Of a stretch of DNA of 64,000 nucleotides, positions 8,379-64,000 are shown in pieces. The DNA is from a virus. The stretch lies in the IMG/VR virus record IMGVR_UViG_3300024339_000015. The stretch is one strand, 5' to 3'. Position numbers and translations under genes: made by a program. How positions within the stretch are numbered: the stretch's first letter is position 1; each line of letters opens with the position of its first letter. The notes beneath the pieces are model-generated. The model worked only from the letters and a program-made list of their open reading frames with translations. It was not told where the DNA came from and did no database searches.

Positions 8379-8437
8379 TAACAACTACACAACTTCGTAG
8401 CTAGTAGTACACATGGTGCAACTGACAAGACATACTA

Positions 8438-10520: not shown

Positions 10521-10593
10521 GGGGCTGTAGCTCAGTTGGGAGAGCACCTGATTTGCATTCAGGGGGTCGCAGGTTCGATCCCTGTCAGCTCCA
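10521..10593 (+). tRNA. tRNA-Ala(UGC)
   Basis: GGGGCTG/CAGCTCC acceptor with G3:U70, anticodon arm CCTGA-TTTGCAT-TCAGG, TTCGA T-loop; CCA not encoded. Confidence 0.97.
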
Positions 10594-10625
10594 CTATTTA
10601 CGTTACTTGACTAAAGCAGAAAAAG

Positions 10626-39529: not shown

Positions 39530-40126
39530 TTATAAGTAGATTTTTATTAAATTTCTAAGGGCATCAAATCTTGTTGCTTTATGTCTAAATGCTCCTACTC
39601 CAGACTCAATTGGATATAAAAATTCCCTGACTTTTCTAGATATAGGAATATCGTATCCTTTCATCATTCTGTTTTGAGCAGCAAATTCTTCTATCGCATC
39701 TCTCTTGCCTCTAGTAAATTTATCTTTCAGTGTTTTTGGTCTAAAAGTTTTTTGAGGGTTCTTTTGGTTTCTTATAGCGTGGGTAAGCTCATGCTTTTTT
39801 ATCATAGGATACTCCGCCCCCAACTTTCTTTTATTTAAAAAAACTAGTTGTTTTCCGCTTTTCATGCCTACAGTTTTTGCTACTGGGAATGAGCCTAAGT
39901 CTTGGTATAAACTTTCCCCCATTATTTTGCCTACAGCCTTATCCAGGTCATTTCAGTTATTTATTTCTTTTATTGACAAGGCAGTTTTAGTTAATTTTAA
40001 GTTTCCCAACCCAGTTCTTCTTAGTGCCCTAATAAAAGGTGGTTTTTTTCCAGCAGCCAAAGATTTGTCCATTAACTTTTTTAATTCCGGAACTTTTTTT
40101 GTACTAAGCGGTCTTTGGAAACTCAT
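39530..40126 (-). CDS. Late protein with HExxH motif, 198 aa via TGA 39953-39955
   Basis: ATG coupled to the RNAP stop (TAATG); in frame with 39530..39922; KKHELTHAIR. Confidence 0.7.
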
Positions 40127-46100: not shown

Positions 46101-46188
46101 CGGGGAAGGCCGCCTCTATAGAGTTAGATATGGAAGAAAAGATGTTTTTATTCTGGAGTCGGTGGTCTAAGTAATTAGCGTTTTTCAT
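40126..46188 (-). CDS. rpoBC: Fused beta-beta' multisubunit RNA polymerase, 2020 aa with in-frame TGA 43957-43959
   Basis: Beta motifs TPES, YNFEDG, DKLSGRYGNK, NPHGVPGRMN; beta' motifs DLSGRS, NRAPSLH, NADFDGD; the two track ORFs share one frame, and the gap between them encodes DKLSGRYGNK. Confidence 0.93.
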
Positions 46189-46222: not shown

Positions 46223-46558
46223 TAAGTAACGTTGTACTGTTTAAATATAAACTAACAGTACGGCTATGTCAACTGATAAACCAGGGACATATTTTTGAAT
46301 ACAAAAGAAAAAGAAAGTGATCCCAACGACGAAATTTACGTCGAACCTTGGGGTAAGTAAGGAAAGAAAGGGACTATCTGTCTCTTTCTAATTTAAAAAA
46401 AATAACCATATTTATCTATGAAAGATTCTGAAATGAAGTCATCAATAACAGACATAGTAAAAACTGTTTCTACGTTTGTACTTGATCTAATTTATGGCAC
46501 CGACGAAGAACACACAAAAAAAGATTCGAAAAAAAAAGATAAGTAAAGGAAACTAAAG

Positions 46559-46870
46559 ATGATTGATATCCCGAAGCAGGACCCAATAAGTTATGAAGAA
46601 TCGGCGTATGATTTAGAAGGATACGACTTTGTAAGGGACGTACATGTAAATGTTTGTACAAATGATGTTGGGTATGTAACTAAACTAGAAGTCATGGTAT
46701 GTACAAACAGTCTAGAAAGTTTTTCAGATATTGTTCTTCCTGTTGAGTTTAAAAATAAGGAAGAGTTTGATCAACTACTGGAAGGCAAGTTGAAACAAGC
46801 AGACGAACACTTTAAAAAAGAAAACGAAAGATTAGAAGCCTCTTTTAGGCAATGCAGATTATTTAATTAA
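46559..46870 (+). CDS. Hypothetical protein
   Basis: ORF track, AAGGA RBS. Confidence 0.7.
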   Translation: MIDIPKQDPISYEESAYDLEGYDFVRDVHVNVCTNDVGYVTKLEVMVCTNSLESFSDIVLPVEFKNKEEFDQLLEGKLKQADEHFKKENERLEASFRQCRLFN

Positions 46871-46892
46871 AAACAAAGGAAACAAAAAAAAG

Positions 46893-48026
46893 ATGTTAAA
46901 AAAATTATTAAAAACAGAGAGTACCTTAAACTCTTATTTTATAGAGAGGGAAGACGAAGTCAGAGGACTAACCTTAGGCATATTATCGGGAAACAATGTT
47001 CTATTTTTGGGCCCTCCCGGAGTATCTAAGTCACTTCTTGTAAATAGTTGGGCGTCGTTAATTAAGGACACTAACTATTTTGGATGGCTAGTGAACAGAT
47101 TCTCAACACCAGAAGAGCTTTTTGGCCCTTACTCTTTAAAAGGTTTGGAAAACGATGAGTACAAAAGAATTACGGATGGAAAACTTCCGGACTCTCATGT
47201 AGGTTTTATTGATGAAGTCTTCAAGTGTAATTCAGGTGTTTTAAATGCATTACTAAGCGTGTTAAATGAGAGAACCTTCTACAATAACGGGAAGGCAGTG
47301 AAGACCCCAATATTAACAGTGGTAGGCGCATCAAATGAATTACCAGAAGAATCTGATAACTTAGAAGCTATGTACGATAGATTTCAGTTAAAATATATGG
47401 TAAGCCGCATTCAGGAGCCATCTAATTTTTCTAAATTAATGAAATTAAAAAATGGTTTTGAAGGAAATACGACTTTAAGTTTATCCGACATTCATGCCGC
47501 AAAAGCTCAAGCAATGGAAGTTCAGATATCCGATGAAATGGTTGACCTTCTAACTGAGCTGAGAGAAAAGTTAAAGGAAGAAAATATCGACGTTACTGAT
47601 AGGACATATATGTTTTCTAAAAAATTACTAAAAGCAGAAGCGTATATGAACGGTAAATCAGAAGTAACTGAAGAAGACTTTGAAATTTTACAAAACGCAT
47701 TTTGGTCTGAACCAGGTCAGAAAAAAACTGTATACAGCACTATCTTAAACACCGTAAACCCAGCAAAGAGTAAAGTCTTAGATATTTATTATGACGCTAC
47801 GGACTTATTTGAGGATTTAATGGCAAGTAAAAAAGATAACATAGAATCTACAGAGAAGAGTATGGAAGCTGTAATTAAGTTAAAAGATGCTAAAAAATCT
47901 TTACGGGGACATTACTTAGATGCTAAGAAAAATGGACAAGACTACAAAATTGTACAGAAATACGAAAAGAAAGTAGACATCTATTTAAATAAAGTATACG
48001 CAGAATGTTTGGAGGTTTCATTTTAA
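46893..48026 (+). CDS. ravA: MoxR-family AAA+ ATPase (RavA-like)
   Basis: GPPGVSKS, STPEELFGP, FIDEVFK, GASNELP, AMYDRF. Confidence 0.9.
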   Translation: MLKKLLKTESTLNSYFIEREDEVRGLTLGILSGNNVLFLGPPGVSKSLLVNSWASLIKDTNYFGWLVNRFSTPEELFGPYSLKGLENDEYKRITDGKLPDSHVGFIDEVFKCNSGVLNALLSVLNERTFYNNGKAVKTPILTVVGASNELPEESDNLEAMYDRFQLKYMVSRIQEPSNFSKLMKLKNGFEGNTTLSLSDIHAAKAQAMEVQISDEMVDLLTELREKLKEENIDVTDRTYMFSKKLLKAEAYMNGKSEVTEEDFEILQNAFWSEPGQKKTVYSTILNTVNPAKSKVLDIYYDATDLFEDLMASKKDNIESTEKSMEAVIKLKDAKKSLRGHYLDAKKNGQDYKIVQKYEKKVDIYLNKVYAECLEVSF

Positions 48027-49571
48027 ATGAAAAGTTTATCAAAGAAAAATAGATCTATATTAAGCGAGATCAGGTCAGAAGAGTTTACTATAGACCACGA
48101 TAACTTTGATATTAAGAACTTTCAAGAGTTACTAGTAAAAAATCCTAAGATAGCCCGATTATATATCGAAGGATCAAAAGAATACCCACAATTCAAAAAT
48201 CTTCAACAAGATGTTTATGATTCATTATATAAATACGGGCCGAAAAAAGTACATGAGTCAGATATACAATTAGAGTACCTATTAAATAGTCAAATTATGG
48301 ATGCAGTAGTAGACTCTAATAAGTATAAGGAATTAAGATTAATGACAAGGCTGGATAAGGTAAATTCAGCCGTCGGGTCTGAGGTATTAGGTAATGATGT
48401 GAAAGACTTGGTTGACAAGTTAAGAGAGGAGTTTGAAGACGCATTAAATAATGCAAAACAAGCTCAGAAACAAGTAGACGATGAACAGGGACAAGGTAAG
48501 GGTGAGCAACCCGAGTCCGAGGGAGGTGCCGGAGATCAAGAAGGTAAAGGACAGGAATTCACATCTCTTGAGGAAGCACAAAAGAAACTGGAAGAGTCTA
48601 TGAAGACCTTGAACAACTTTATTGATGAACGTGAAAGACGTCAGATAGATAAAATGCTGGACAATGCTTTAAGTGAGACGAAGGAAACTTCGGACATGAT
48701 TACTAACTGGGGGTTAGAACAAGACCCAAGTTACAGCAAAGCAGGGTACCAACAAAAGTTGAAACTGATTGAAAGGCTAAAGTCATCAAAAAAGCTACAA
48801 GAAATATCTAAGTTAGCTGGAAGATACAAAAGATTAGCTGTAAACTCTCAGAAAGAAAAAATACGAAAGGGAGCAGATTCTCTATATGACATAGTTACGG
48901 GGAATGACCTGGGACGAGTGTTATCTAGCGAAGCAATGAAGTTAAGAAAACCTATATTGAAAACCTTGTTTATGAAAGAGTATCTAGAAGAATCGTTACT
49001 ACAATATGAGTACCAAGGCAAGGAAAGGAAAGGTAATGGTCCTATGATATGTTGCATTGACTCGTCTGGAAGTATGGGAGGTATCCCAGAAATTTGGGCA
49101 AAATCAGTAGCTATGGGATTGTTAGATATTTCAAGACAGCAAAAAAGATCCTTCATGGTCATACATTTCGATGCGTCAAGCAAAGAAAGTTTGCACACCA
49201 ATACTTTTGACAAAAACGGAAGTTACAATATAGAAGAGGTGCTAGACATGGCAGAATACTTCACGAGTGGCGGCACATTATTCGAGCCATCCCTAGATCT
49301 AGCAAGAGACAAGATCGAACAAGAGAAAGACTTCGAAAAAGCTGATATAGTTTTTATAACTGACGGAGAATCTACCATAAGACCAAATTGGTTATCTAAC
49401 TTTAAGAAGTGGAAGTCAGAAAAGAATGTAAAGATACAATCTATACTAATAGATATGGGCTATAATTTTCAAGGAAGCTTGGATTTATTCAGCGATTCAG
49501 TTACAAAACTGAGAGAATTGACCTCATCATCTTTGGATGAGTTAGCTACGGACATCTTTAAAAACATATAA
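48027..49571 (+). CDS. viaA: vWA-domain protein (ViaA-like)
   Basis: GNDLGRVLSSE, MIDAS IDSSGSM, GGTLF, ADIVFITDGE; follows the MoxR gene. Confidence 0.88.
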   Translation: MKSLSKKNRSILSEIRSEEFTIDHDNFDIKNFQELLVKNPKIARLYIEGSKEYPQFKNLQQDVYDSLYKYGPKKVHESDIQLEYLLNSQIMDAVVDSNKYKELRLMTRLDKVNSAVGSEVLGNDVKDLVDKLREEFEDALNNAKQAQKQVDDEQGQGKGEQPESEGGAGDQEGKGQEFTSLEEAQKKLEESMKTLNNFIDERERRQIDKMLDNALSETKETSDMITNWGLEQDPSYSKAGYQQKLKLIERLKSSKKLQEISKLAGRYKRLAVNSQKEKIRKGADSLYDIVTGNDLGRVLSSEAMKLRKPILKTLFMKEYLEESLLQYEYQGKERKGNGPMICCIDSSGSMGGIPEIWAKSVAMGLLDISRQQKRSFMVIHFDASSKESLHTNTFDKNGSYNIEEVLDMAEYFTSGGTLFEPSLDLARDKIEQEKDFEKADIVFITDGESTIRPNWLSNFKKWKSEKNVKIQSILIDMGYNFQGSLDLFSDSVTKLRELTSSSLDELATDIFKNI

Positions 49572-49741
49572 TTACAGTTACATAGGACAGAGTCGTCCGG
49601 GCAATACGTTTCGTATAGCATTGTAGGTTAGCCTACCACTCAGTTGCACGAGATTAGTGGTTAGTGTAGTTATAGTTAAATCAACAGTTACGAGAGTAAC
49701 ATACTACGATGGCTGATACGGCCATCTATGATTATAATGTT
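49563..49741 (+). ncRNA. Retron msr/msd-like unit 0 (upstream of the RT)
   Basis: Imperfect arms AACATATAATTACA / TATGATTATAATGTT, G49577 right after the first arm, hairpin GGAC/GTCC, hairpin ATACG-TTT-CGTAT (49604-49616); more hairpins continue to 49860. Confidence 0.6.
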
Positions 49742-49881
49742 GTACAAATACTATTTTGCACAGCAATATCATCAAGAACAAAATCTAAACAGTTTTTAAG
49801 ATCGTTAAAAACTGGTAGTATAACTACTAAAATGCGGGCGGGGAGATAACTCTCCCCACCCCATGACAAGGAGAAGACAAC

Positions 49882-50784
49882 ATGACAATTTTTGAAATGG
49901 TAGAGAAAGATAGAGAAGAGTTGAAAGATATAGACAAAAATAAGGAGTTATATTATCTGTCGTACCCCATAAAGAAAAGAAATGGTAATAGTAGATGGTT
50001 AGACGCACCTCAAGGTGAGTTAAAAGATTTTCAAGAGGCCTTTCTTTATAAATTTTTATACAAGTTTAAACCACATCCAGCAGCAGTAGGGTTTGTGACA
50101 AAAAAACACGTATCAGATGGCGCTAAAAAACATTTAAAAAATAATGTACTGCTTACAATAGACGTACTAAATTTCTTTGGAAGTATACATGAACTTAGAG
50201 TTATAAAATTAATTAGCTTCTTGTTTAGTGCATACGTAAAAAGAGACCCATCTTTTGTATTCAGGAAAGACGACATACCATTAATAGCCTCTTTATTAAC
50301 ATTTAAAGGATCTATTCCCCAGGGCGCCCCGTCAAGTCCAGCATTATCGAATTTGTATTGCCTTAGACTAGACAAGAATTTAACTAACTTTGCAGAAAAC
50401 CACAATCTTGTGTACACCAGATATGCTGATGATTCTGCATTTAGTCATAAAAATAGGACCGAAGATATAGGCAAGCTTATTCCTGAAATAGAGATGTTTT
50501 TTAACGCAGAAGCTTTAGTATTAAATAAAAAGAAAACTAAAGTTAGGAGACCTCATAAAAGAATGGTAGTCACGGGAGTAGTAATAAATGATAAATTAGG
50601 GATTCCTAAATGGAAAAGTAAAAATTTTAGAGCTAAGTTACATAACTTAATAAGAGACAATAAGTCAGTAACATTAGAAGAATATCAAAAAATGAGAGGT
50701 TATGCAGAATGGATACGAACATTGGACCCACTAAAGGGAAAAAAGTTTATAAAACAACTTGGGAACGTGACTTTATCAGATTAA
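49882..50784 (+). CDS. Retron-type reverse transcriptase
   Basis: IKKRNG..R..AP, region X GAKKH, IDVLNFFGSI, PQGAPSSP, YTRYADD, region Y VTG; RT-only, no maturase or endonuclease domain. Confidence 0.92.
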   Translation: MTIFEMVEKDREELKDIDKNKELYYLSYPIKKRNGNSRWLDAPQGELKDFQEAFLYKFLYKFKPHPAAVGFVTKKHVSDGAKKHLKNNVLLTIDVLNFFGSIHELRVIKLISFLFSAYVKRDPSFVFRKDDIPLIASLLTFKGSIPQGAPSSPALSNLYCLRLDKNLTNFAENHNLVYTRYADDSAFSHKNRTEDIGKLIPEIEMFFNAEALVLNKKKTKVRRPHKRMVVTGVVINDKLGIPKWKSKNFRAKLHNLIRDNKSVTLEEYQKMRGYAEWIRTLDPLKGKKFIKQLGNVTLSD

Positions 50785-51233
50785 AAGAGTTACGAGAGTC
50801 TTTCTTAAAGTTAAGTAATGCCCACGTTTACCTACCATTTGGGTGGATAGACTTAGGGAATCCTATAAAGCCAAAGAAAAAATTGGGAAGGTATACCCAC
50901 AAGTCAATAAAACCTGAATTTAGGCCACTAATCCCAAAGCATTTTAATGCGGGCATGGGTTTGGGAACTATAGGCTTTATGACAGCTTACGCTGAGTCAG
51001 TTAGGGAAAGAAAAATTTTAGGGTTACAGATGACGTTCCCTGCGAGTACTGGGGAGCATTTGATACACAGAGTGACTGGGTTTAAATATAAGTGGAATAA
51101 ATCGTCTGTAACAATAAAACGAATTTTAGGGACAACAAAAATCCCTAGAGTAGAAGAGCAAATACTTTGTTTGCTCAGAGAATGTAACAGGTTTTTTAAC
51201 CTGTACTGTGAAGAGAAGATAGTTAGAATATAA
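50709..51233 (+). CDS. Unknown protein overlapping the RT 3' end (candidate partner)
   Basis: ORF track; start uncertain. Confidence 0.55.
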   Translation: MDTNIGPTKGKKVYKTTWERDFIRLKELRESFLKLSNAHVYLPFGWIDLGNPIKPKKKLGRYTHKSIKPEFRPLIPKHFNAGMGLGTIGFMTAYAESVRERKILGLQMTFPASTGEHLIHRVTGFKYKWNKSSVTIKRILGTTKIPRVEEQILCLLRECNRFFNLYCEEKIVRI

Positions 51234-51429
51234 ATAATAAACCGGAACAATATAATATGATACCTACATTAATCGGAGCTGTTATTTTGCAGACAGTTGG
51301 GGCTGTTGCCTCAATACTAGCAGAAGAACAGTATAGAAAAGCTAAAGGTAAAGGAAATAAAAAACATAAAAAAAAGAAAAGCTAAACCGATAATTAGGAA
51401 ACGTATGACGACGAGGACAAAAATATAAC

Positions 51430-51618
51430 ATGCAGTTTAAAATAAAATTGGAGACGGGAAAAAAAGGAAGTGAATCTAGAATTTTATTTGTTAGAGCTGA
51501 TAGCATAATTGGTGCTATGGATATATCAAATAAAGTTAGAGGTAGCAAGTTAAAAGAGATAACACCTATCACATATGAAGAGTATATGGCAGGTGTGCGT
51601 AAGAAATATGATAATTAA
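51430..51618 (+). CDS. Hypothetical protein
   Basis: ORF track, GAGGA RBS. Confidence 0.65.
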   Translation: MQFKIKLETGKKGSESRILFVRADSIIGAMDISNKVRGSKLKEITPITYEEYMAGVRKKYDN

Positions 51619-51630
51619 CCAGTAATATAA

Positions 51631-52353
51631 GTGAGACTCAGAGCATTTACTCAGAATAGCAAGACAATTCTTTCTGTAGATTTCTCTAGAACTACGTGCC
51701 CACAAGTATGTGAGTATTGTTACGTAGGAAACATGGAAAGAATATATCCAAGCTATAAAGAAAAAATAAAGAAAAATGCAAACTGGGCAACTGGAAACTA
51801 TGAAAACTTCTCGTCGCAATTAAATGACGAATACACATCAACAAGGAAAAGTAAAGCAAAAAAACTAAGACGGGTGAGTAAATTACCCGTTAGAATATAC
51901 GGCTCTGGAGATTTTATCCCAGAACATCTAATGTTTATGGAAAGATTAGACTTTAAGTTTTATGTAATTAGCAAGTCACTAACATCCAACTTTATGCATA
52001 AATACATAGATGAATTATTGAAAATGGATAATCTGACAAATTTAGTGTTGAGTTTCGACGCACAAAATTTAGATAATTATAATGGTATAAGTAAATTATA
52101 TGGTGACGATCGGATTTCATTCGCTTTTACTGGCATGGCAGACGAGTTTAAAGAAGTCAGACTTGACAAACAGTTCGATATATTTTTTAATATATCTAAT
52201 AAAAAAATCGAGAAAGAAAAATCAAAACTGTATAAGGAACAATGCCCATGTGATAGTGGAGCAATGGCCCATAACGAAAGTTGCTCTTTCTGCAACAAGT
52301 GTTGGAAGTCATCATTAACAAAAGACAAGGATTGGAATAAGGAACATATATGA
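51631..52353 (+). CDS. Gp88-like / radical-SAM-like Fe-S protein
   Basis: CPQVCEYC, VRIYGSGDF, C-terminal CPC...CSFCNKC. Confidence 0.65.
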   Translation: MRLRAFTQNSKTILSVDFSRTTCPQVCEYCYVGNMERIYPSYKEKIKKNANWATGNYENFSSQLNDEYTSTRKSKAKKLRRVSKLPVRIYGSGDFIPEHLMFMERLDFKFYVISKSLTSNFMHKYIDELLKMDNLTNLVLSFDAQNLDNYNGISKLYGDDRISFAFTGMADEFKEVRLDKQFDIFFNISNKKIEKEKSKLYKEQCPCDSGAMAHNESCSFCNKCWKSSLTKDKDWNKEHI

Positions 52354-52571
52354 GTTTACTAGGAAAAGAGTTAAGAACAGAACCCATCATTGATGAAATA
52401 GAAGTATTATATGATGAGTTTAAAAAGTTGTACAACGAAGTGCTGGTTAAAGGCGGTATAAAAAGATCTATCAAACTCAGAAGCACAGCAAGACAGCTTC
52501 AAATGGCGTTTAAATCATTTAGACCTGCCTCTGTGAGCGATACACGGGAGCACTTAGGAAGAATTAAGTAA
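52350..52571 (+). CDS. Small basic helical protein, weakly Hc1-like
   Basis: ORF track; ATGA overlap. Confidence 0.6.
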   Translation: MSLLGKELRTEPIIDEIEVLYDEFKKLYNEVLVKGGIKRSIKLRSTARQLQMAFKSFRPASVSDTREHLGRIK

Positions 52572-52575
52572 AAAA

Positions 52576-52789
52576 AATACACATAGTTTATCTATTATGT
52601 TAATAGCATAAAAAGACATACGATTCGTATATCAATGATACGTATACATTCCTTCTTAGGAACAAAGTCTGAAAAAATTAGAGGACCGCAGGAAAAAAAC
52701 TAACTATCCAGAAAAGATGCCTTCTGGATAGTACTATTTTTTTTCCACACGGACTCCTACTTTTTTGCAGTCCTCAAAGTATGTGTGTT
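52576..52789 (+). ncRNA. Retron msr/msd-like unit 1
   Basis: Arms AATACACATA / TATGTGTGTT, G52586 directly after the first arm, ATACG-ATT-CGTAT (52618-52630), long hairpin 52681-52775. Confidence 0.75.
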
Positions 52790-52795
52790 AGAAAC

Positions 52796-53129
52796 GATAA
52801 ATCTCGCAGTTTATCTATTAACACAAGTAGAGTTAGTGGAGCATATGTTTCGTATGCACATAACAATCAGCATTAACATGAAACGGTACAGCTAGAAGGA
52901 GGAAAGAAAAATCCCTCCTCCAATCTGTACCGGTACACATGTTAATGCTGCAGACAGCAAAGAGTATCCCGGAATTCCATCCGACTCTTCGTGGGCCCCA
53001 AGACTCTGGCGATCAGCTCACCAGCGGGCGCGCCCTTCATCGCCGCCGTCCCAGGATCTTCAGGCGTTTTCGAAACTGGGCCAGGTCAGGATTAGGTGAT
53101 CAGGAGAACATTTTTGCAGTGCGAGCTAT
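52796..53129 (+). ncRNA. Retron msr/msd-like unit 2 with GC-rich cargo
   Basis: Arms GATAAATCTCGCA / TGCGAGCTATC, G52809, AGTTTATCTATTA shared with unit 1, GCATATG-TTT-CGTATGC (52841-52857), hairpin 52868-52950 with a perfect 13-bp base. Confidence 0.72.
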
Positions 53130-53131
53130 CA

Positions 53132-53160
53132 TAAAAAAGGAACTAACCATTCCTTTTTTT
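53132..53160 (+). terminator. Intrinsic terminator closing the ncRNA pair
   Basis: AAAAAAGGAA...TTCCTTTTTTT. Confidence 0.7.
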
Positions 53161-53241
53161 TAACTTAAAAATTCTTTTTTTTAGTTTGAAATATGTTTAT
53201 ATTAAAGAGAGACTAAAATTAACTAAAAATCAAACTTATAA

Positions 53242-54549
53242 ATGAAGAAGAAAATTCTAGCATGGTGTGACTTTAATGTTCCTACTGGGTTTGCAAACGT
53301 AGCAAAAAATTTATTAGAAGACTTACATGAAGAGTATGAATTATCTATACTTGGGATTAACTACCACGGACATACTAAGTATGACACAAGTAAGTGGTTC
53401 GTATACTCCATAACAAATCAAGACCCACTAGGGGTACGACGACTACCTAAAATAGCTGCCGAAGAGAATCCTGATATCCTATTTTTATTCCAGGACATAT
53501 TTCATATATCAGACCATCTCGAGGAGCTGAAAAAAGCCTTACCAGAAAAAACAAAGATAGTAAGTTATTTCCCCATAGATGGGGGACCATTCTCTCTCGC
53601 ATGGGGGAATGTATTCTCCGGGTCAGACGCAGTTATTACTTACTCTGATTGGGCCATAAAGACTATAAAAGATACCTTTCCTAAAATAAATACTACAATT
53701 CATAAGTTATATCACGGAGTGAACATAGATACTTTTTATCCACATGCATACGGAAAGATAAAAAGTTTAAGAAAAGAGTGGGGATGGGAAGGTAAATTTG
53801 TTCTTTCTAATGTCAATAGATTCCAACCCAGAAAAGCAGTACCATTAAACCTTAGAGCTTACTCGTTATTTTCTAAAGGGTATAAGGAATGTAAGTGTGG
53901 TAATCATATGCCTATATCAAAGAAATCCTGTGACCTAAATATGTGTAAAAAAGAAGACATTATAAAAGTAGTAGAGCATGATAGAAACGACATATTTCTT
54001 TACTTACACATGATGCCTAAAGAATCTTCTATGGGGCCAGGAAGAGCTAATCTATTGCAGAATCACATACTAAATGCGGGATTCACAGATAAGGATGTCA
54101 ACAATATTATAGGAGTAAATGCAAACAATATTTATGGAGGCGGAGTAACGGAGGACATGGTAAATGATATTTACAATGCATCTAATATAAATGTTAGTTC
54201 TACTTTAGGAGAAGGTTGTGGGCTTAGTTTTTTAGAGTCAGCAGCTACAGGAACTCCTAGCATTGCCCCAAAGAACTCAGCTATCCCAGAGATGTTAAAC
54301 GGAACCGGAACATTAGTTAAAAATAATGCCATAATGAATCAAGCAATGGATAATGCTCATATGCGACCTATGGTTGATCCGTGGGAACTAGCATTAGCTT
54401 ACGAAAAAGAGTATAAAAGGTGGAAAAAGGAATGCCCAGATGGCGGGAAAGAGTTACGAAAAGATTGTACAAATAATATAGATACGAATTTTCTTTGGGA
54501 TGATAAGAAAGAAAAATTAAATAAAATATTTAAAGATGTATTAAAGTAG
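53242..54549 (+). CDS. GT-B (family 4-like) glycosyltransferase
   Basis: TGFANVA, LYHGVN, NVNRFQPRKA, GEGCGLSFLESAATGTP. Confidence 0.9.
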   Translation: MKKKILAWCDFNVPTGFANVAKNLLEDLHEEYELSILGINYHGHTKYDTSKWFVYSITNQDPLGVRRLPKIAAEENPDILFLFQDIFHISDHLEELKKALPEKTKIVSYFPIDGGPFSLAWGNVFSGSDAVITYSDWAIKTIKDTFPKINTTIHKLYHGVNIDTFYPHAYGKIKSLRKEWGWEGKFVLSNVNRFQPRKAVPLNLRAYSLFSKGYKECKCGNHMPISKKSCDLNMCKKEDIIKVVEHDRNDIFLYLHMMPKESSMGPGRANLLQNHILNAGFTDKDVNNIIGVNANNIYGGGVTEDMVNDIYNASNINVSSTLGEGCGLSFLESAATGTPSIAPKNSAIPEMLNGTGTLVKNNAIMNQAMDNAHMRPMVDPWELALAYEKEYKRWKKECPDGGKELRKDCTNNIDTNFLWDDKKEKLNKIFKDVLK

Positions 54550-54551
54550 TA

Positions 54552-54731
54552 CTACTCAAATTCTAGATACCAAACAGTTATCATTGCCTTCCCCAACTTA
54601 TCATAAGTAAATTCATCTCTTAAGATTTCACAGTTGGGGTTGTTCAAAATATCCTCGTATTGAGCTTTTTCTAGCTCGTCCTCTAACGAAAATTTTTTGA
54701 CATTAATTTTACCGTCCTCATTAAAGTTCAA
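54552..54731 (-). CDS. Small late protein (59 aa)
   Basis: Manually translated from TTG after GAGG: MNFNEDGKINVKKFSLEDE... Confidence 0.65.
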   Translation of the reverse strand: MNFNEDGKINVKKFSLEDELEKAQYEDILNNPNCEILRDEFTYDKLGKAMITVWYLEFE

Positions 54732-54936
54732 TAGGAACTACCTCAAGCTTATCTAGGTCATCACTATCATTTATCACGTCAGGATCATAGTCTAGCTCTT
54801 CTCACCTATCACCCTCCCCATTATAATAGTTAGAAACTTTTTCTAATCCTTTATCATCTGTACATAAAATTTTAGTTATTTTACCTGTGGAAGTATTTTT
54901 AAAAACTTTATACGTTCCATATTTTGTCATAGACAT
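54721..54936 (-). CDS. Small late protein, 71 aa via TGA 54802-54804
   Basis: TAATG-coupled to the portal gene; ...LEKVSNYYNGEGDR*EELDY... Confidence 0.7.
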
Positions 54937-56801
54937 TATACATTCCCTCTGGTTTGTCCCTTCTGTTTTTCAGAGTCATCCTGCACTCGCTGTGTTTCTG
55001 ACTGTTGGTTGTTCTGGGACTGATTACTAATATTTTTAGCTGCTTGTTCAGCTTGCTGTTGCTGTATCATCATAATCTGGTTCATTCTTTCCGTAACTAA
55101 GCCGTACGTAATTGGCATATCTGCTGCCATTTTTTGTAACCTTTGTTTCTGTTGAGCTTGTGGCAACCCAAGCAATTCGTACGAATACCTCTCAATTAAT
55201 TGAGCAGGATCAGCTGGTATTCCTTGGTTCTCTCTTGCGAGTTCTTCCCCAAATAGTTCAGCTTTCAGTCTTGTTTGCTCACTTTGAGCTGCTTGCTGAG
55301 CCCGAACATTGTACCTAGCAATAGTTATACCTGCCTTACCTTGTGCCTCGGCCGCAGCTATTTGTCTATTAGATTGCTGTTCGTTCATTATAGACTGGGT
55401 TTTTTGTAGGGCCTCTTGCTCTGCGGCATAGTTGTACCCAAACTCATCCAGTAACCTAGCATCACTAATCTTACCGGTTTGGTTTAAATTAATAGCTAAC
55501 TGTTTTGCAGAAGCATCGTCAGCCATTTTAAACTTTTTAAAGTGTACCTTTACCTTAGGATAACTTAATATTTTATTTATTTTTGTAAGTACAAAGTGAT
55601 TTAAAAAATCAGTTAGTAGCTCCCTATACGTAAGAAAATGGTTCTCAACAATACGTAACGATACGCTAGAACTTGTCCAAGAGCCACCACCTTTAATAAA
55701 CTCTACTGGAACACCTAAACTATTTATTATACTTTCTTCTAAAAATCGCATCTCTGGAGTTAGCAATAACGCTCTAGCATTACCACCTAACTCTTGGTAA
55801 CCGATAGGGATAGGAAAAACACCAATATGGTTTGGGTCTTTTTTCCACTTTTTAATTTGGTCCTCCATTTGTCCTTTCCATTTACCGAGATTCATTTGTG
55901 TGAACGGATCAAGTGTAGTTGTATTAGCAGGATGAATAGCTTTTTTTGGAACAATATGCTCATTAGCAATTGCTTCATTACCACGTCTTAAGGTTTGTAA
56001 GTAATAAATTTCTTTTAGAGCAGGCAGTATAATTGGCTTGCCCCATCCCATATCTTCTTCTGCAAGAGTAGGTCTTTTAAAATGATAAAAATTAGACTGG
56101 TCTAATTCAATTTTCTTTCTTTTCTTTAGTGACTTAAGAAAAATAGCCGGAACACCTTTTAATATAGTTTTATTTCCTGATATAATTTGACTCTTAATCT
56201 TAGGTGGTATACTATAAAAGTAAGTAGATTTTCCAGTTATAGGATTAAATTCAATATCAATATTTTCTGGAGACCATCTCACTAGATCAAAGTTATCTAT
56301 AGACTTAAAGTACTCGTCTTCTACTGACATCATTATTTCTCCAGCACCACAAGAATCACATTTTCCATGGAATTGGAATTTTTTTAGCTTAAAGTTCTTT
56401 ATGTTATCAATTAAGTCTGTATTGCCGCAACTAGAGCACTTTAAAAAACGTCTAAAGCCTACTGAAGCGGATATAAAAGCGTTGCCGTAAGTAAAATAGT
56501 CTAACCCTATGCTTATCAAAAAACTTTTAATTTTTAGTTTATCATGTAAAGCAGTGTCATACTTATCCCTAGTTGCTGAATCAATACTATTTTCATATAA
56601 AATATCAGTGATAGGGTATTCAGTAAGCTTTGTAATTATATTATTTAAGAACCCATTAGTATAAAAGAATGTTCTACAATACTTAAATAAAGTCTTTATA
56701 TTTTTTGGTATAAAATTTCTAGCTAAATCGAAAAAAGGGTTCGGGTATTTATTACCCGTCGTGCTTGTTATATCAGCATCTGAGATTGGTCTTACTGGCA
56801 T
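54936..56801 (-). CDS. Portal protein
   Basis: Size, LVRWSPENI...FYHFK...WGKPII, head-gene context, Gln-rich tail. Confidence 0.75.
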   Translation of the reverse strand: MPVRPISDADITSTTGNKYPNPFFDLARNFIPKNIKTLFKYCRTFFYTNGFLNNIITKLTEYPITDILYENSIDSATRDKYDTALHDKLKIKSFLISIGLDYFTYGNAFISASVGFRRFLKCSSCGNTDLIDNIKNFKLKKFQFHGKCDSCGAGEIMMSVEDEYFKSIDNFDLVRWSPENIDIEFNPITGKSTYFYSIPPKIKSQIISGNKTILKGVPAIFLKSLKKRKKIELDQSNFYHFKRPTLAEEDMGWGKPIILPALKEIYYLQTLRRGNEAIANEHIVPKKAIHPANTTTLDPFTQMNLGKWKGQMEDQIKKWKKDPNHIGVFPIPIGYQELGGNARALLLTPEMRFLEESIINSLGVPVEFIKGGGSWTSSSVSLRIVENHFLTYRELLTDFLNHFVLTKINKILSYPKVKVHFKKFKMADDASAKQLAINLNQTGKISDARLLDEFGYNYAAEQEALQKTQSIMNEQQSNRQIAAAEAQGKAGITIARYNVRAQQAAQSEQTRLKAELFGEELARENQGIPADPAQLIERYSYELLGLPQAQQKQRLQKMAADMPITYGLVTERMNQIMMIQQQQAEQAAKNISNQSQNNQQSETQRVQDDSEKQKGQTRGNV

Positions 56802-58652: not shown

Positions 58653-59204
58653 TTATTTACCTTTCATTTTTTTTAAATCTTTTAAAGCCTTTTTTATGTC
58701 TACCCTACTTTTTTCAAGTTTAATATCCATACTACTAGTAGTGGCCTTTTCTATGTAAGGGTTTGACCCTTTCTTTATGTCTATATGTTTTGGTACAGAA
58801 TACTTACGTACATCAACTTCCTTAGAAGTACTCGATGTTTTTTTGTCACTACTTACCACACTATTTACTACTATCGGAGAATTAGTACTTTTTTTAAACC
58901 AAAATGCTGCTATGAAAATTGATAGCAATACTAATAAAATCCTGAATTCTACTACGTAATAATATATAGGGTTTTGCACTGTTTCTATTGGAATAAGTAT
59001 TTCATCCCCAGGAAATATTTTATCGGGATTAATTCCTAAGGATTCTTTGTTTAAATGGTAAACACTACTTCAAGAAACTCCGTAAATTTCAGATATTTTA
59101 CTAACAGATTCACCGCTTCTTACTGTGTGCTGTTTAGCTCTAATATAATCAGTACCAAACAAAAACGACGTTACCAGCAGTAAGTATACTAATAACCTTT
59201 TCAT
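58653..59204 (-). CDS. Signal peptide + LysM + TM protein, 183 aa via TGA 59070-59072
   Basis: Manually translated: HTVRSGESVSKISEIYGVS*SSVYHLNKESLGINPDKIFPGDEILIP, in frame with 58653..58979. Confidence 0.88.
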
Positions 59205-59206
59205 TT

Positions 59207-60280
59207 TTATAGTCTGGAAGTGATTTCTTCTCTAATAGGCTTTGGCAAAGAAGCTAATATGTCTAAACCCTCTTCACCCCGTAACTCAGGTATAATATCA
59301 TTTCCAACTAGTGGAGTAAGTTCTGAATCAGGAATACTCCTTAGCTGTTCATGGGTAACTGTAGTACCGTCGACATCAATAGAAGCAACTTTAGGTAAGT
59401 CTAGAGTGGCCATTAACGGGTCCTCTATACCCTTACCATAAGTACCCGTTAGGGATGCTTCTTTGTCTAACTCATACATAGTTAATGCAGAAACAATAGC
59501 ACCTTTACTGTCAGCTTCCTTTAGTAAATTATCATACTTAGAACTTAATTCATCCTCATTATCTTTTAAATAGCTCTTCCTAATTTGAACATGGTTATAG
59601 AATTCAGTATTAAATATTTCTGAGTCTAAACTAGCATACTTTTCAACTGCAGTCTTATTTAGGAATACCTCGTTTAAACTAGCTGCTTTCTGTAAATTAG
59701 ATATAAACTCTAATTTCTTATCAACAGGCATTTTATAGTGATTTTTCTCGAAGTAAGATGCTGCTTTTTTTATGTTAATTGGTGTGTCAATAGGGTATCT
59801 TTCTTCCTTCTCCCATGCGTATAGGGAAGGAGACACTTCTTGGTTACCAACTTTATTTACAAAGTCAGCTTCATTTATATCTCTAATGTCAAAAACATTG
59901 TCTATATAATCTTCTGATGCGTACTTAGAAAGTCCGTCTGGAGTTTGTAATTTATGTGAAGCAGCTGCTCTTGTTAAGTTAGCTGCTGCAACTTTAATAA
60001 CTTCTTCTGGTAATGTATCTAAAGATTCAGATAGAAAAGCCATGTTCAGCTCTACAAGCTCCGGAGTGTACATAGCAAATTTATTTAATTTACCTGTTCT
60101 GGGATGCCATAAAACTAAAGCGAAGTCTCGTTCGTTTTTTGTCTGCTGCTCTTCATAGCTTGGAATATGCGCTGTTTTCACGCTATCTGACAATCCTTCA
60201 ACTATGCTTGCAAGTTTTTCTATCTCATTTGCCATGATATAGTCAACAACATCCAAGTTCATACTTGCAATTTTATTCAT
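59207..60280 (-). CDS. Head/scaffold-like structural protein rich in K-x-A motifs
   Basis: NKIAS, EKLAS, VKTA, IKVAA, SKYAS, NKTA, EKYAS, PKVAS. Confidence 0.7.
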   Translation of the reverse strand: MNKIASMNLDVVDYIMANEIEKLASIVEGLSDSVKTAHIPSYEEQQTKNERDFALVLWHPRTGKLNKFAMYTPELVELNMAFLSESLDTLPEEVIKVAAANLTRAAASHKLQTPDGLSKYASEDYIDNVFDIRDINEADFVNKVGNQEVSPSLYAWEKEERYPIDTPINIKKAASYFEKNHYKMPVDKKLEFISNLQKAASLNEVFLNKTAVEKYASLDSEIFNTEFYNHVQIRKSYLKDNEDELSSKYDNLLKEADSKGAIVSALTMYELDKEASLTGTYGKGIEDPLMATLDLPKVASIDVDGTTVTHEQLRSIPDSELTPLVGNDIIPELRGEEGLDILASLPKPIREEITSRL

Positions 60281-60283
60281 TTG

Positions 60284-60898
60284 TTAGCCCTCGTTTTTTA
60301 TTTTATTTATGTAATCGTAAGCAACATACCCAGGACATGCAGGCTTCCCGAAGTCAGCGTGACCATATATGTCTGCTTTAGTTATAGACAATTTATCCAT
60401 ATTAAGCAAGTGTTCTATCAATTTTTTTAGAGACGAGAGCTGTGCTTGAGAAGGTCCACTAGATGTTCCTTTGTGACCCTCGCCGTCAAAGTCACCAACC
60501 AACATTATTCCTATACTTGATGTATTTTGTCCCTTAGCTTGCCATACGGTATGACTTAATTGATTACAGTGGTATACATCCCCTTCTTTTGATATCCCAT
60601 AATGATAACAAAAATGGGGACACCCGTTAGGAGAGATATGATTAGGTTGGATATGGTAGTTATTGACTTGCTCTACTGTGGCATCACCAAGTTCTTGGTG
60701 CACAATTATTTTATTTATAGATGCTAGCGATCTTTTACTTCATTTTCTTGACTCGTGCCATTGTAACTCACTAATTACATTATCAATAACAAATGGTTTT
60801 TTTATTGCCTCTTCTGAAACTTTTTTATCTGGAGCTGGTATTGTCCTCTTTAGTAAGATTTTAATAAATTCTCAAACGTATGTTAGTATTATTTTCAT
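60284..60898 (-). CDS. Endolysin, type-2 N-acetylmuramoyl-L-alanine amidase, 204 aa via TGA 60872-60874 and 60740-60742
   Basis: KIIVHQ, YHYGI, SIGIMLVGDF, YGHADFGKPACPG; the first zinc-ligand strand is only complete with the upstream TGA-containing N-terminus. Confidence 0.9.
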
Positions 60899-60911
60899 GT
60901 TTTAATTTAGG

Positions 60912-61178
60912 TTAGTTTTGGGCAGGCCTGGTAGGAATTGAACCCACGCACTCCGTTTTGGACGCGGAGGGGGACAGTTTTGAAGACTGCTCGTCACCCA
61001 GCTGACGCCTCAGGCCTATTTTATTTTTTATATAGTCCTGTGACGCATTATTAGCATCATCAATATTATTGTATGCATTATCTAGAATTTTGGTTTGTTG
61101 TAAACAATGGTCGTCTATTTGTACAGAAAAATTGTCTGTACCATAAATAGCGTCTATATGTATTTCGAGTCTCTTCAT
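60912..61178 (-). CDS. ORF whose 3' third is the UCA tRNA
   Basis: TAATG-coupled start; no stop before the tRNA. Confidence 0.45.
   Translation of the reverse strand: MKRLEIHIDAIYGTDNFSVQIDDHCLQQTKILDNAYNNIDDANNASQDYIKNKIGLRRQLGDEQSSKLSPSASKTECVGSIPTRPAQN
60919..61018 (-). tRNA. tRNA with UCA anticodon (reads UGA), long variable arm, Sec-like/suppressor
   Basis: AGGCCTG/CAGGCCT acceptor (8 bp with U:G, then C-CCA), D-stem CGTCA/TGACG, GCAGT-CTTCAAA-ACTGT, CTCCG/CGGAG extra arm, GTGGG-TTCAATT-CCTAC. Confidence 0.9.
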
Positions 61179-61501
61179 TATTTATCCAATGTCTTAGTTA
61201 TTCCAGCACCTAGTATGGTGTATAAAAGTTTTTTAAACCATAGTTGCTCCCAGAAGGGGACTTGTAGTTTGTCTACCTCCTGGTAGTTAATAATTATAGA
61301 GTCCTGGATAGCTATTAAACTATCCTTATTAACACACTCCTGTAGCTTGACTAAAAGAGTGTCAAACTGTGTTGGTGTAAATACTATACTACCTACATCA
61401 ACTAAGGTAGGTTTAGTTAGGAGCTCTTGACAACCCACTAAACTAAAGCTTAGAAAGGAGATCGTTAAAGTGCTTAACTTTATCTTCTGGAACAATGTCA
61501 T
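61178..61501 (-). CDS. Lipoprotein, spanin-like
   Basis: Lipobox LVGC, C-terminal hydrophobic stretch, overlaps the upstream TM/coiled-coil gene. Confidence 0.65.
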   Translation of the reverse strand: MTLFQKIKLSTLTISFLSFSLVGCQELLTKPTLVDVGSIVFTPTQFDTLLVKLQECVNKDSLIAIQDSIIINYQEVDKLQVPFWEQLWFKKLLYTILGAGITKTLDK

Positions 61502-61706
61502 TTATTTCTTTCTCAATAGATTTTTTTTTATTTTTATTTTGCAGCCTGTTTCTTTTTTCTAAAAGGCGTTTTATCTTATTTCTTTTAATTTTAATCTCCG
61601 CTGAATCGTTAGATAATACTTTAGACCCAGCGTAGATTAATACTACATAAGAAATTATGTGTAACAGTTCCCTTATAAGTGAAGCTAGGTTACTTAGCTT
61701 CTTCAT
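61443..61706 (-). CDS. Membrane-anchored coiled-coil protein (i-spanin-like)
   Basis: N-terminal TM segment plus basic helical tail; lysis-cassette position. Confidence 0.55.
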   Translation of the reverse strand: MKKLSNLASLIRELLHIISYVVLIYAGSKVLSNDSAEIKIKRNKIKRLLEKRNRLQNKNKKKSIEKEINDIVPEDKVKHFNDLLSKL

Positions 61707-61914
61707 CTGTCCCTACTAATTCCCGCAAACTTTCTATTTTGCCTCTTGTAAAGTCATGTACTTCTTTTTCTTGTGCAATAGCTTGACGTATTTCGTTCTC
61801 TTGTTCACGTAATTTCTGTATATTGTCGTTGTATTCTTGCACCTTTTGCACACGAGCATTATTTTCTTCTTCTAACTTATGTATCTTTTCTTCCAGCATT
61901 TTGGTATCTTTCAT
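61690..61914 (-). CDS. Coiled-coil protein
   Basis: ORF track. Confidence 0.7.
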   Translation of the reverse strand: MKDTKMLEEKIHKLEEENNARVQKVQEYNDNIQKLREQENEIRQAIAQEKEVHDFTRGKIESLRELVGTDEEAK

Positions 61915-62052
61915 ATTATTGTAGTTTGGTTAAGTTTGAAAGTGTTATATTATTTAATATATTAAGTTTGATTATGAAAAGCAATGGTTATTTATGGTAT
62001 TTTTCTTTTATATTTTATAGCTGTTTCCCACCTAGACATTATGCCCTAAATA

Positions 62053-63999
62053 CTACCCACAATGGTACGTACAACCAACAAACGCTACCATGTACACTAC
62101 TCCATCATACTCCACCTCTTCTAGTTTATACTTAGTATCATCATCAAAATTACAGTCCATTGTTATTTTAGCAACAGTATAGTTGTGTAGTACATCATCT
62201 GATTGTTTCATGCCTATACCAGGAATAGGTGATGAAGTTATATAGTCCCCATTTTCTAGATTTCCAGAATAATTTGATATCCAAACAGCACCCTCCCCTA
62301 AGGAGTTTATTTTTAAGTACTCATTTAGCATAGAGTTTCCTTCACTGTCTACAAGTAGATTTTTATCATCGTCAAATTTTCTGGTGTTAGTAATGCCAGA
62401 TATAACGCCGTAAACCGACTTATCCATTTTTGTGGAAGATACCTCAACATTCGTTCATGTGTCCATTATATCAATAGAAGAGATACCCGTATTCATTGAC
62501 CGATCTGTATAACCAGGACTAGAAGTGACAATTTTACCTATATAATTCTCTATGTTATCCTTGTAGTAGTTAATTGTATTATCAGATGGCCATGATTTAT
62601 GGGTACCAGTAAAAAATAAACTGGTCCAAAATACTCCCCCAGTATCATCGGTTAGGAACTCATCGTTAGCTGCAGTTGAATTGTTAGAATCGTATAAGAA
62701 CGATCTCATTCTAACAGTACCGTTGACATCAAGCTGACTAGTTGGAGCGTCAACATTTATACCTACGTTCCCACCAGAAATATTTAGTTTATTACCATTC
62801 TCAAGTTTAAAATTTATAAAAGACCCTGGAGTACCTCACCCTATATAACACCCCCTAGTATCAGAACTATCTCTTACTTCAAAGTACCCATAGTGGTCGG
62901 AGTCGGAAGTATATTTAGATGTAATAGCTCCATAATTACATCTTATTTTTCCCCCACTTACATCAAATAGCTCCCCAGGGTTGGTAGTGCCAACACCGAC
63001 ATTTCCATCATACTTTATAGTCAGTCTGTCAAATAAGTCCTTATCATAAAGGTTATTAACGGCAAATCTAAGGTCAGTTTTGTCATAACTGGTATTCATA
63101 TTATCAGTGTGCCTTACAGCCCTAATTGCAGCCCCTATCTGGTCAGTGTCCTCGGATGGATTCATAGTATTTGATTTAAAAGCGATCCCAGCGAATGCGT
63201 TTTCTGTTGCATTATCGTTGTGTATAACTAGCTCAAAGTCACTAAATATGTTATTGTTGGATGTAGTTGTGCCGTCATCTCCCCTAATTTCCATAACCCC
63301 AGCAGCAATTGTCCCTACGCCACCTGCACTTAATTTATTAGTAATTTTGACATCACCACCCGTTACATATAATTTATATGAACCATTTAGATTATCATCT
63401 CCGATAGTTACTTGTCCTGCTGTAATTCCTTTTTGAAAATATGGGGGGAAAGAATCGTAGGATGACGCGGCTAAAAGTCTAAAATCAAAAGTAGATTTTA
63501 ATCAAAAGTACCTTGCGCCAGAGGTATGCCTTCCCAAGTTGGTGTAGGAAACGCCGTTTAGTTCAACATCGTAGCTTCAAAAAGCGTCTCCATCCAAATT
63601 ATTAGATGTAGCCCCTGTCAGGTCATCAGCGTCTCCTCCAAAATTGTATTTTCCAAGCGAAAAATCACTGCTAGTAGTACCAAAACCTAACGAAAGAGTG
63701 TTGGAGTTATAAGTTGAGTTAGTTGCATATGATTCTAATGTTGTGGAACTAACACCTACAGATCGTTTATAATAAAAAGTAGAGTTGGCTCCTTCTATGT
63801 ATACTTGGTGTCCTCCTCTTAGTCCTGGAGTAATTATCATTCCTATCGGATAGTCCAGCGATGGGGTCTCCATCCGAACCATACCAGCACTCTCCCCGCC
63901 TCGAGCTCCATTTAAAATTAAAGCATAGTAATTTCCGGAACCGGAAGTCCAATCTGATACATATCTCACGAAATATTTTCCAAAATCAGCATGTGTCTC
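62053..63999 (-). CDS. Tail fibre-like protein, partial, one frame with four TGA (63577, 63502, 62836, 62455)
   Basis: Four track ORFs join in frame; GNVGVGTTNP/GNVGIN repeats; C-terminal NSLGEGAVW...NGDYITSS...VAKITMDC domain; TAG stop. Confidence 0.88.
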
Positions 64000-64000
64000 G

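Follow-up and report, generated by a model that had tools for sequence, protein, structure and literature searches.

The subject of this work is a transfer RNA (tRNA) gene with a UCA anticodon, located on the minus strand of the virus record IMGVR_UViG_3300024339_000015 (IMG/VR), of which one stretch of 64,000 nucleotides (nt), called the window here, was analyzed. Our favored reading, held with moderate confidence, is that of an opal-suppressor tRNA-Trp, encoded by the phage, whose anticodon arm has been duplicated; the UCA copy would decode UGA and the CCA copy would serve as an identity decoy for the tryptophanyl-tRNA synthetase (TrpRS) of the host. Judged from its sequence, the loop of the variable arm, GUCCAAA, is a tRNA-Trp anticodon loop, and the hairpin that carries it copies the anticodon arm of tRNA-Trp(CCA); this identity of the loop was absent from an earlier note on the same DNA.

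Architecture of the tRNA and its family

Two tRNAs were called by ARAGORN in the window. One is a tRNA-Ala(UGC) on the plus strand (10521-10594); the other, to which the following coordinates refer, was called on the minus strand as a "tRNA-SeC (tca)" of 100 nt (60919-61018). According to ARAGORN, a segment check and the family alignment, the body of the latter, an opal-suppressor tRNA-Trp(UCA) with two anticodon-type hairpins in our reading, extends from A1 to G73 over 95 nt (60923-61017). The 5' strand of the acceptor, AGGCCUG (61011-61017), pairs with CAGGCCU (60930-60924), which gives A1-U72, G2-C71 and G3-C70, and the discriminator G73 lies at 60923. An AGG linker, which contains A8, is followed by a D arm with a stem of 5 base pairs (bp; CGUCA/UGACG) and a 6-nt loop (GCUGGG), linker and arm together occupying 60992-61010 by ARAGORN and the segment check, and a single A stands between the D stem and the anticodon stem. 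Hairpin 1, the decoding anticodon arm (60974-60990), has the stem GCAGU/ACUGU and the loop CUUCAAA (60985-60979), with the anticodon UCA at 60983-60981. The variable region of 26 nt (60973-60948) is largely taken up by hairpin 2 (60951-60969), with the stem CUCCG(C)/(A)CGGAG and the loop GUCCAAA (60963-60957), in which CCA lies at 60961-60959. The 5-bp T arm (GUGGG/UUCAAUU/CCUAC, 60931-60947) was delimited by ARAGORN, the segment check and covariation, and G73 is followed by the tail CCCA (60919-60922) and not by an exact CCA, which in most relatives is encoded directly after G73. The acceptor is readable in two ways, either as 7 bp (A1-U72) followed by G73 or as 8 bp with U(-1):G followed by C and CCA. 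The features that the earlier note had listed (a UCA anticodon loop CTTCAAA, a long variable arm, the D stem, which has 5 bp, A8, and two acceptor readings) are all present according to ARAGORN and the sequence.

Homologs were collected by two pattern scans of IMG/VR. The first required a fixed anticodon loop, 3' acceptor end and portion of the T arm, and allowed any variable region of 10-40 nt. It gave 30 loci with 24 distinct sequences, among them one junk sequence, one ordinary short-arm tRNA(UCA) and one long-arm copy truncated at the end of its locus, and the remaining 21 sequences, with the window copy counted in as an added reference, are long-arm tRNAs; 20 long-arm sequences, namely the window copy and 19 relatives, were aligned with MAFFT. 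In the second scan the anticodon loop, UCCAA and the T loop were fixed and the acceptor was left free, which gave at least 114 loci with 56 distinct cloverleaves. More than 60 distinct homologs, from marine and gut phages, are known from this work. In the alignment from the first scan, in which the variable region was unconstrained, the extra-arm loop contains U-C-C-A in 20 of 20 homologs, followed by A in 19, and compensatory changes were found at all six pairs of the hairpin 2 stem. Over 59 sequences the loop takes the form N-U-CCA-A-N, with GUCCAAA in 28, CUCCAAA, which we take to be the anticodon loop of E. coli tRNA-Trp, in 17, and UUCCAAA/C in 10, and a 7-nt loop on a stem of 5-7 bp was present in 50 of the 59. 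The spacer from hairpin 2 to the T stem is usually 3-4 nt long, and the spacer between the two hairpins varies from 0 to 10 nt.

Covariation was found in all four helices that were tested, with 94% of cells paired versus 72% in shuffles, and 0 of 500 shuffles were as high. All seven pairs of the acceptor stem are kept among the homologs, four of them with compensatory changes; the stem of hairpin 1 covaries in all five pairs of the family alignment, and in L076 and L078, which are the closest relatives, one pair of the D stem covaries. The minimum-free-energy fold of the single sequence (z = -1.7), which is uninformative alone, recovered the acceptor, D, anticodon and extra-arm helices and missed the T arm.

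The acceptor of the family is of the tryptophan type. In the second scan, in which the acceptor was free, the 1:72 pair is A:U in 46, G:U in 8 and G:C in 2 of the 56 cloverleaves, N73 is G in 55, CCA directly follows G73 in 34, and AGGGG is the commonest 5' end (24 of 56). U(-1), the usual RNase P context, is present in 43 of the 56, and the acceptor and T stems, of 7 bp and 5 bp, are both 100% paired across the family. The identity elements of bacterial tRNA-Trp are G73, A1-U72, G2-4:C69-71 and the CCA anticodon (PMC9976931, PMC2965240). The window tRNA has the acceptor features of tRNA-Trp (G73, A1-U72, and G-C at 2-71 and 3-70) and departs from tRNA-Trp in two respects: its decoding arm carries UCA, CCA being found in hairpin 2, and it does not have a variable loop of 4-5 nt. 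When a common family member was compared by BLAST with GenBank phages, matches were obtained only to genes annotated as tRNA-Trp. Furthermore, the part of the molecule that begins with the hairpin 2 loop and runs to the 3' end matches tRNA-Trp(CCA) collinearly from its anticodon loop to its 3' terminus, and the 5' half aligns with the 5' half of tRNA-Trp. Such an arrangement would arise most simply if the anticodon arm of a tRNA-Trp had been duplicated in tandem and the upstream copy had mutated to UCA.

The subfamily that comprises the window tRNA and those of L003, L076 and L078 has the AGG linker and the 5-bp D stem in addition, and it is because of these two features that it looks like a selenocysteine tRNA (tRNA-Sec). 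The earlier note had considered a remodeled selC-like scaffold; this idea does not hold, as the score of the tRNA-Sec model is below its threshold, the family fold is 7/5 with G73-CCA, and the body resembles tRNA-Trp. Another subfamily with the decoy arm (L006 at 5861-5955, which is the same as L057, and L058/L072) is without the canonical elbow, with GGCGGUA or CUUGACA as T loop and a D loop without GG; it retains the UCA loop and the CCA hairpin and was missed by ARAGORN. For the window tRNA itself, Rfam gave no match at the locus at gathering thresholds, and neither blastn of the tRNA nor megablast of 60000-64000 found a match among GenBank phages.

UGA in the late genes of the phage

Several genes on the minus strand of the window are broken by TGA under translation table 11 and form single open reading frames (ORFs) when TGA is read as Trp; public gene calls cut the late genes of this phage at every TGA. 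The endolysin (Amidase_2, PF01510; 60284-60898, minus strand), whose start codon lies 20 nt after the end of the tRNA on the same strand, has in-frame TGA codons at 60872-60874 and 60740-60742, and of 15 relatives aligned at its codon 53, a TGA, 12 have W and the other 3 also have TGA. A conserved structural protein of 561 amino acids (1859-3544, minus strand) has TGA at 2591-2593 and 2306-2308; at its codon 413 (TGA) W was found in 19 of 19 homologs, and at its codon 318 (TGA) W is the most frequent residue, with 8 of 19. A fused RNA polymerase beta-beta' of 2020 amino acids (40126-46188, minus strand) has TGA at 43957-43959, within the motif YMP-W-KGYNFEDG, which corresponds to the "MPW" motif of RpoB, and solved RpoB chains show W or F at the aligned position. 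Further in-frame TGA codons are found in a tail-fiber-like protein that is open at the window end (62053-63999, minus strand; TGA at 63577-63579, 63502-63504, 62836-62838 and 62455-62457) and in a LysM-domain protein (58653-59204, minus strand; TGA at 59070-59072). When the residues aligned to TGA were counted across related loci in cleaned gene sets, they were TGA itself and W, the top residue, and Ser, Cys and Gly showed no excess. By these alignments UGA in the late genes is read as Trp. The statement in the earlier note that the codon context says Trp is confirmed by the aligned W in the RpoB motif, in the 19 homologs of the structural protein and in 12 of the 15 endolysins, and its suggestion of a suppressor inserting another residue (Ser, Sec, Cys or Gly) is contradicted by the same alignments.

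The use of TGA differs between the strands. The blocks of early and replication genes on the plus strand, at 6700-38060 and 46500-54600, have 138 TGG, 2 internal TGA and 4 terminal TGA, where a terminal TGA is one that lies within six codons of the next TAA or TAG, and the blocks on the minus strand have 50 TGG and 12 TGA, all of them internal and none terminal (Fisher p = 1.6e-5 versus the plus strand). In several plus-strand ORFs the TGA end precedes the next TAA or TAG by 2-4 codons, and the terminal TGA codons of this strand can be regarded as real stops because of their distance of six codons or less from the next TAA or TAG. By this codon usage, TGA is a sense codon only in the late blocks on the minus strand and a stop in the early blocks on the plus strand, which follow the standard code. 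The early genes avoid internal TGA and use TGA as a stop, and therefore the host would be a bacterium with the standard code.

The presence of the tRNA was compared with recoding in relatives. Portal-based searches gave 19 related loci, the portal gene of the window (54936-56801) having been identified through relatives. The nine portal-related loci with a homologous tRNA(UCA), located ~4 kb from the portal, have 2-19 internal TGA codons in conserved ORFs, and the twelve without a tRNA(UCA) have 0-1; one of the nine tRNAs, the L006 copy, was missed by ARAGORN and recovered with the Sec model. The relatives represent about 3-4 independent lineages, and what they give is a consistent pattern and not a statistic. 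G003 (189 kb, with terminal repeats) has 17 tRNAs, none of them a UCA tRNA; its 47 conserved ORFs are free of internal TGA, and 14 TGA codons stand at ORF ends. In G001 (205 kb, 97% complete; the genome of L012) the long-arm tRNA is the only UCA tRNA found, next to an ordinary tRNA-Trp(CCA), and there are 49 internal TGA codons, mostly aligned to W. Because recoding tracks the presence of the UCA tRNA and because it is the sole UCA tRNA in G001, the window tRNA is very probably the actual decoder, which the earlier note had left in doubt. G001 also has a 77-nt tRNA with a CUA (amber) anticodon at 105393-105469. Transfer-messenger RNA genes occur in several of these large phages, recoded or not (G001 at 96897-97268, G003 at 120343-120710 and L001 at 485-908).

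The window is phage DNA with ~35% G+C, and this phage was found in seawater metagenomes of at least 10 studies. Other genes in the window encode DNA and RNA ligases, a MoxR/VWA pair, a reverse transcriptase and the actin-like Volactin. The reverse transcriptase gene (RVT_1, 49882-50784, plus strand) adjoins the MoxR-VWA pair and may belong to a diversity-generating retroelement or be of a defense type. The fused polymerase contains the motif NADFDGD and is much shorter than the bacterial pair. With its single TGA, the phage's own polymerase depends on suppression, which is a possible feedback or timing device. At the endolysin start (60898) and other late-gene starts no Shine-Dalgarno-like motif was seen, and an A-rich stretch lies ahead of the endolysin start; when the ~35% G+C and the marine source are also considered, the host might be of the Bacteroidota type.

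A promoter and terminator scan gave no more sites than shuffled sequence, and one -35/-10-like site ~60 nt upstream allows no interpretation. The locus is covered by contigs from three of four seawater metatranscriptome runs, a single contig spanning both the tRNA and the endolysin; DNA carry-over is possible, and the contigs are silent on transcription, ends, processing, CCA addition and charging. A T>C difference at 61031, 13 nt upstream of the tRNA, occurs in contigs of two seawater RNA libraries, and the tRNA is identical in every contig compared. An ORF of 88 codons (60912-61178, minus strand), whose ATG overlaps the stop of the upstream gene (TAATG), reads through the tRNA gene to its first stop at 60912 and is present in the public gene calls for two of three copies of the window phage; it may be a chance ORF or else a short coupled gene that overlaps the tRNA with its 3' end.

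Charging of the tRNA and alternative readings

The earlier note had proposed a phage synthetase encoded outside the window, which is unlikely, as no TrpRS/TyrRS-family gene was found in 11 related or homolog-bearing phage genomes; none was seen among the large ORFs of the window either, and no RF-1 domain was found. Assemblies of bacteria that use the standard code also contain family members, for example on a 1.48-Mb contig from a Bacteroides isolate, and in a study with E. coli extract Trp was inserted by all 13 phage tRNA(UCA) that were analyzed (bioRxiv 10.1101/2025.10.30.685624). We infer that the UCA tRNA is charged by the TrpRS of the host. In the mechanism that we propose, the 5' hairpin (UCA) would decode UGA on the ribosome and the 3' hairpin (CCA) would offer the major anticodon identity element to the host TrpRS; a tRNA that has lost C34 from its real anticodon could still be charged efficiently with Trp, with no phage synthetase needed. 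The decoy would raise charging enough to compete with release factor RF2, and the tRNA would act as a code-switch element as in TGA-recoded phages. The CCA hairpin is probably such a decoy for TrpRS, and this would be the most economical explanation of its conservation because TrpRS reads C34-C35-A36 and the decoding arm is without C34.

More tentatively, and with rather more doubt than confidence, this might be extended to a general principle in phages, in which an anticodon arm is duplicated, one copy reads a stop codon and the other is a tag for a host synthetase that reads the anticodon, possibly with two stackings that toggle. The layout was seen for Trp/UGA in the family of the window tRNA and for Gln/UAG in at least one tRNA, that of L236 (IMG/VR 3300024272_000400, ~8344-8406). 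This tRNA has an amber loop CUCUAAA, an acceptor of the Gln type (U1-A72, G2, G3, G73 and CCA) and a second 5-bp hairpin whose loop, CUCUGAC, is the Gln CUG anticodon loop, in the same two-hairpin layout. The pattern search for Gln/UAG gave at least 120 matches, mostly ordinary tRNA-Gln with TCTAA in the D loop, and seven of them passed a cloverleaf filter; L236 is the one convincing candidate, L225 and L202 are weaker, and these numbers support no estimate of frequency.

The decoy reading has to be weighed against a number of contrary points. Each of the two scans fixed one part of the molecule, either the acceptor end or the arm loop, and therefore only conservation of the part that was not fixed counts, the rest being circular. 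The window tRNA ends in GCCCA instead of GCCA. The CCA arm is not obligatory, as short-arm tRNA(UCA) with the same acceptor features occur in phages at 21 loci, and one complete genome with short arms, G018 (223 kb), has no TrpRS. In G018 (L321), two short-arm tRNA(UCA), at 21-96 and 1194-1266, head an array of 20 tRNAs. The expected pairing of an own TrpRS with a short arm was seen in one case, G014, which is not significant, the nine other short-arm records being fragments. G014 (L314, complete, 237 kb) has a short-arm tRNA(UCA) at 3815-3889, Lon at 3990-6359 and TrpRS at 6346-7431 (a true TrpRS by TIGR00233, 317 bits) on the same strand, an arrangement that corresponds to the Jade-type "code-change module"; downstream of the TrpRS gene lies a large array of tRNAs, tRNA-Trp(CCA) among them. 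Furthermore, the TrpRS of E. coli has been reported to charge UCA suppressors, a long arm and G73 are also determinants for seryl-tRNA synthetase (SerRS) and some mischarging with Ser may occur, and a contact of TrpRS with hairpin 2 is purely what we infer from sequence. For this particular phage, a second UCA tRNA or a TrpRS may lie outside the 64-kb window. There is also a possible feedback puzzle, in that the polymerase needs one read-through and yet the tRNA gene lies in the late block.

Some of these points agree with an alternative that we regard as unlikely, in which the tRNA is a Trp-inserting opal suppressor but hairpin 2 is no handle for a synthetase. Charging would then go through G73, the acceptor stem, and C35 and A36 of the real anticodon, and the CCA hairpin would be kept for another reader of the tRNA-Trp anticodon loop, candidates being a modification enzyme, an anticodon nuclease of a defense system and a T-box-like sensor, or it would tune the use of the tRNA by EF-Tu or the ribosome against RF2. 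The short-arm tRNA(UCA) with the same acceptor, including those of the complete genome without TrpRS, fit this alternative, and so does the loss of only C34 among the three anticodon determinants; in addition, an extra arm is not mentioned for the 13 phage tRNAs charged with Trp in E. coli extract (bioRxiv 10.1101/2025.10.30.685624). However, in more than 60 divergent tRNAs the loop keeps exactly the elements that are read by TrpRS (a U33-like U, C, C, A and an A37-like A), and its stem has the size of an anticodon stem, no candidate for an alternative partner was seen in the window or its relatives, and the amber tRNA-Gln(CUA) of L236 with its Gln-type CUG hairpin points to synthetases that read the anticodon. 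Alternatively, the molecule might be a two-state or "two-headed" tRNA: with the CCA hairpin stacked under the D stem it would appear as a normal tRNA-Trp to TrpRS and might read UGG, and with UCA stacked it would read UGA. Each hairpin has one canonical junction, hairpin 1 beginning one nucleotide after the D stem and hairpin 2 being separated from the T stem in most members by 3-4 nt, the length of a normal variable loop, and both halves are collinear with canonical tRNA-Trp. We nevertheless consider this improbable, as the reading of UGG is unneeded in G001, which has an ordinary tRNA-Trp(CCA), and as the 5' spacer between the hairpins varies from 0 to 10 nt.

The long arm raises two further readings. 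Together with G73 it could make the tRNA a substrate of SerRS, as are tRNA-Ser, tRNA-Sec and allo-tRNAs, and the suppressor would then insert Ser at UGA; SerRS recognizes its tRNAs mainly by these two features (PMC7609411, PMC5389517), and ARAGORN and the Rfam Sec model respond to the architecture. This is very improbable when it is considered that TGA is aligned to Trp, including in invariant columns, and not to Ser, that the loop of the arm is the conserved 7-nt Trp anticodon loop instead of the short loop of tRNA-Ser, SerRS not reading the loop sequence, that the arm is flanked by unpaired spacers of 4-6 nt and 3-4 nt, and that the acceptor has A1-U72. Slighter still is the chance of a true selenocysteine tRNA (selC) that functions together with SelA, SelB and a selenocysteine insertion sequence (SECIS), for which the UCA anticodon, the long arm, the extended D stem, the possible eighth pair U(-1):G and the ARAGORN label tRNA-SeC could be cited. 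In a permissive E-value search RF01852, the Rfam tRNA-Sec model, was the best family but scored 38.5 bits versus a cut-off of 47, the fold of the family is 7/5 with G73-CCA and not the 13-bp 8/5 domain of bacterial tRNA-Sec, SelA and SelB(-wing) domains were absent from five related phage genomes, and single genes have as many as four TGA codons, the TGA codons falling at Trp positions of structural proteins, lysis proteins and the polymerase. An identity as tRNA-Sec is effectively refuted by these results, and the suppressor tRNA-Trp with a decoy arm remains the reading that we prefer.

Comparison with known systems

Phages with TGA recoded to Trp and suppressor tRNAs are already known, and it is the duplicated anticodon arm, or decoy, that we regard as a new structural variant. 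No published description of such an arm was found in a search that covered few subscription journals, and none is given by Mukai et al. (PMC5389517) or in the identity review (PMC9976931). How recoded phages get their suppressor tRNAs charged is an open point, to which a conserved copy of the cognate anticodon arm, if the decoy reading is true, would be a simple physical answer. In that case the molecule would also be a tRNA architecture outside the class I/class II scheme, a natural "two-anticodon" tRNA, and a ready-made design for suppressor tRNAs that work with unmodified host synthetases, offering an identity tag outside the anticodon for genetic-code engineering. For annotation, pipelines mislabel such genes as tRNA-SeC or overlook them, as ARAGORN did with the L006 copy and Rfam at gathering thresholds with the window copy.

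The closest parallel is with the TGA-recoded gut phages of standard-code hosts described by Borges et al. (bioRxiv 10.1101/2021.08.26.457843), in which the early genes keep the standard code, the genes for structure and lysis are recoded, and a suppressor tRNA precedes the lysis genes; according to the same authors, synthetases are rarely phage-encoded and the TrpRS or GlnRS of the host must be repurposed (bioRxiv 10.1101/2021.08.26.457843). The window phage resembles these phages, and those of Ivanova et al. 2014 as cited there, in having a phage-encoded UCA tRNA, late genes in which TGA is Trp, a lysis gene as neighbor of the tRNA, standard-code relatives interspersed with recoded ones, and a presumed dependence on host TrpRS. 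It differs from them in that a generic "Sup-TCA" without a second hairpin is described there, that those are gut phages and this is a widespread marine phage, and that TGA is found here also in the phage's own polymerase.

Among individual tRNAs, bacterial tRNA-Trp(CCA) and the tRNA-Trp(UCA) of code 4 (Mycoplasma/Spiroplasma) share A1-U72, G2-C71, G3-C70, G73, the 7/5 fold and the loop CUUCAAA or CUCCAAA with the window tRNA. Canonical tRNA-Trp, however, is of class I, with a variable loop of 4-5 nt and one anticodon arm, whereas there are two arms here and, in the subfamily, a 5-bp D stem and a 3-nt linker. With bacterial tRNA-Sec (RF01852) the window tRNA has in common the UCA anticodon, the long extra arm, the longer D stem, G73 and the SeC label given by software; unlike tRNA-Sec, it has no 8/5 domain, its arm has a Trp-type loop, no Sec machinery or SECIS accompanies it, and it would insert Trp at many ordinary UGA codons. 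The allo-tRNAs and the selC* tRNA-Cys(UCA) of Mukai et al. 2017 (PMC5389517) are likewise natural tRNAs of non-canonical form, among them opal suppressors and tRNAs found in phages, and their identity lies outside the anticodon. In contrast to the window tRNA, they have 8/4 or 9/3 folds and Ser, Ala or Cys identity, conferred by G73 with a long arm, by G3:U70 or by U73 (PMC5389517); here the fold is 7/5, the identity is Trp, and the identity element would have moved to the extra arm. Finally, in the thrS operator of E. coli (PMC9976931) a hairpin imitates the loop of the cognate anticodon and is recognized by the synthetase through its anticodon-binding domain, as hairpin 2 putatively is here. 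That operator lies in an mRNA leader and represses translation (PMC9976931), whereas the mimic in the window tRNA is placed inside a functional tRNA and would promote aminoacylation.

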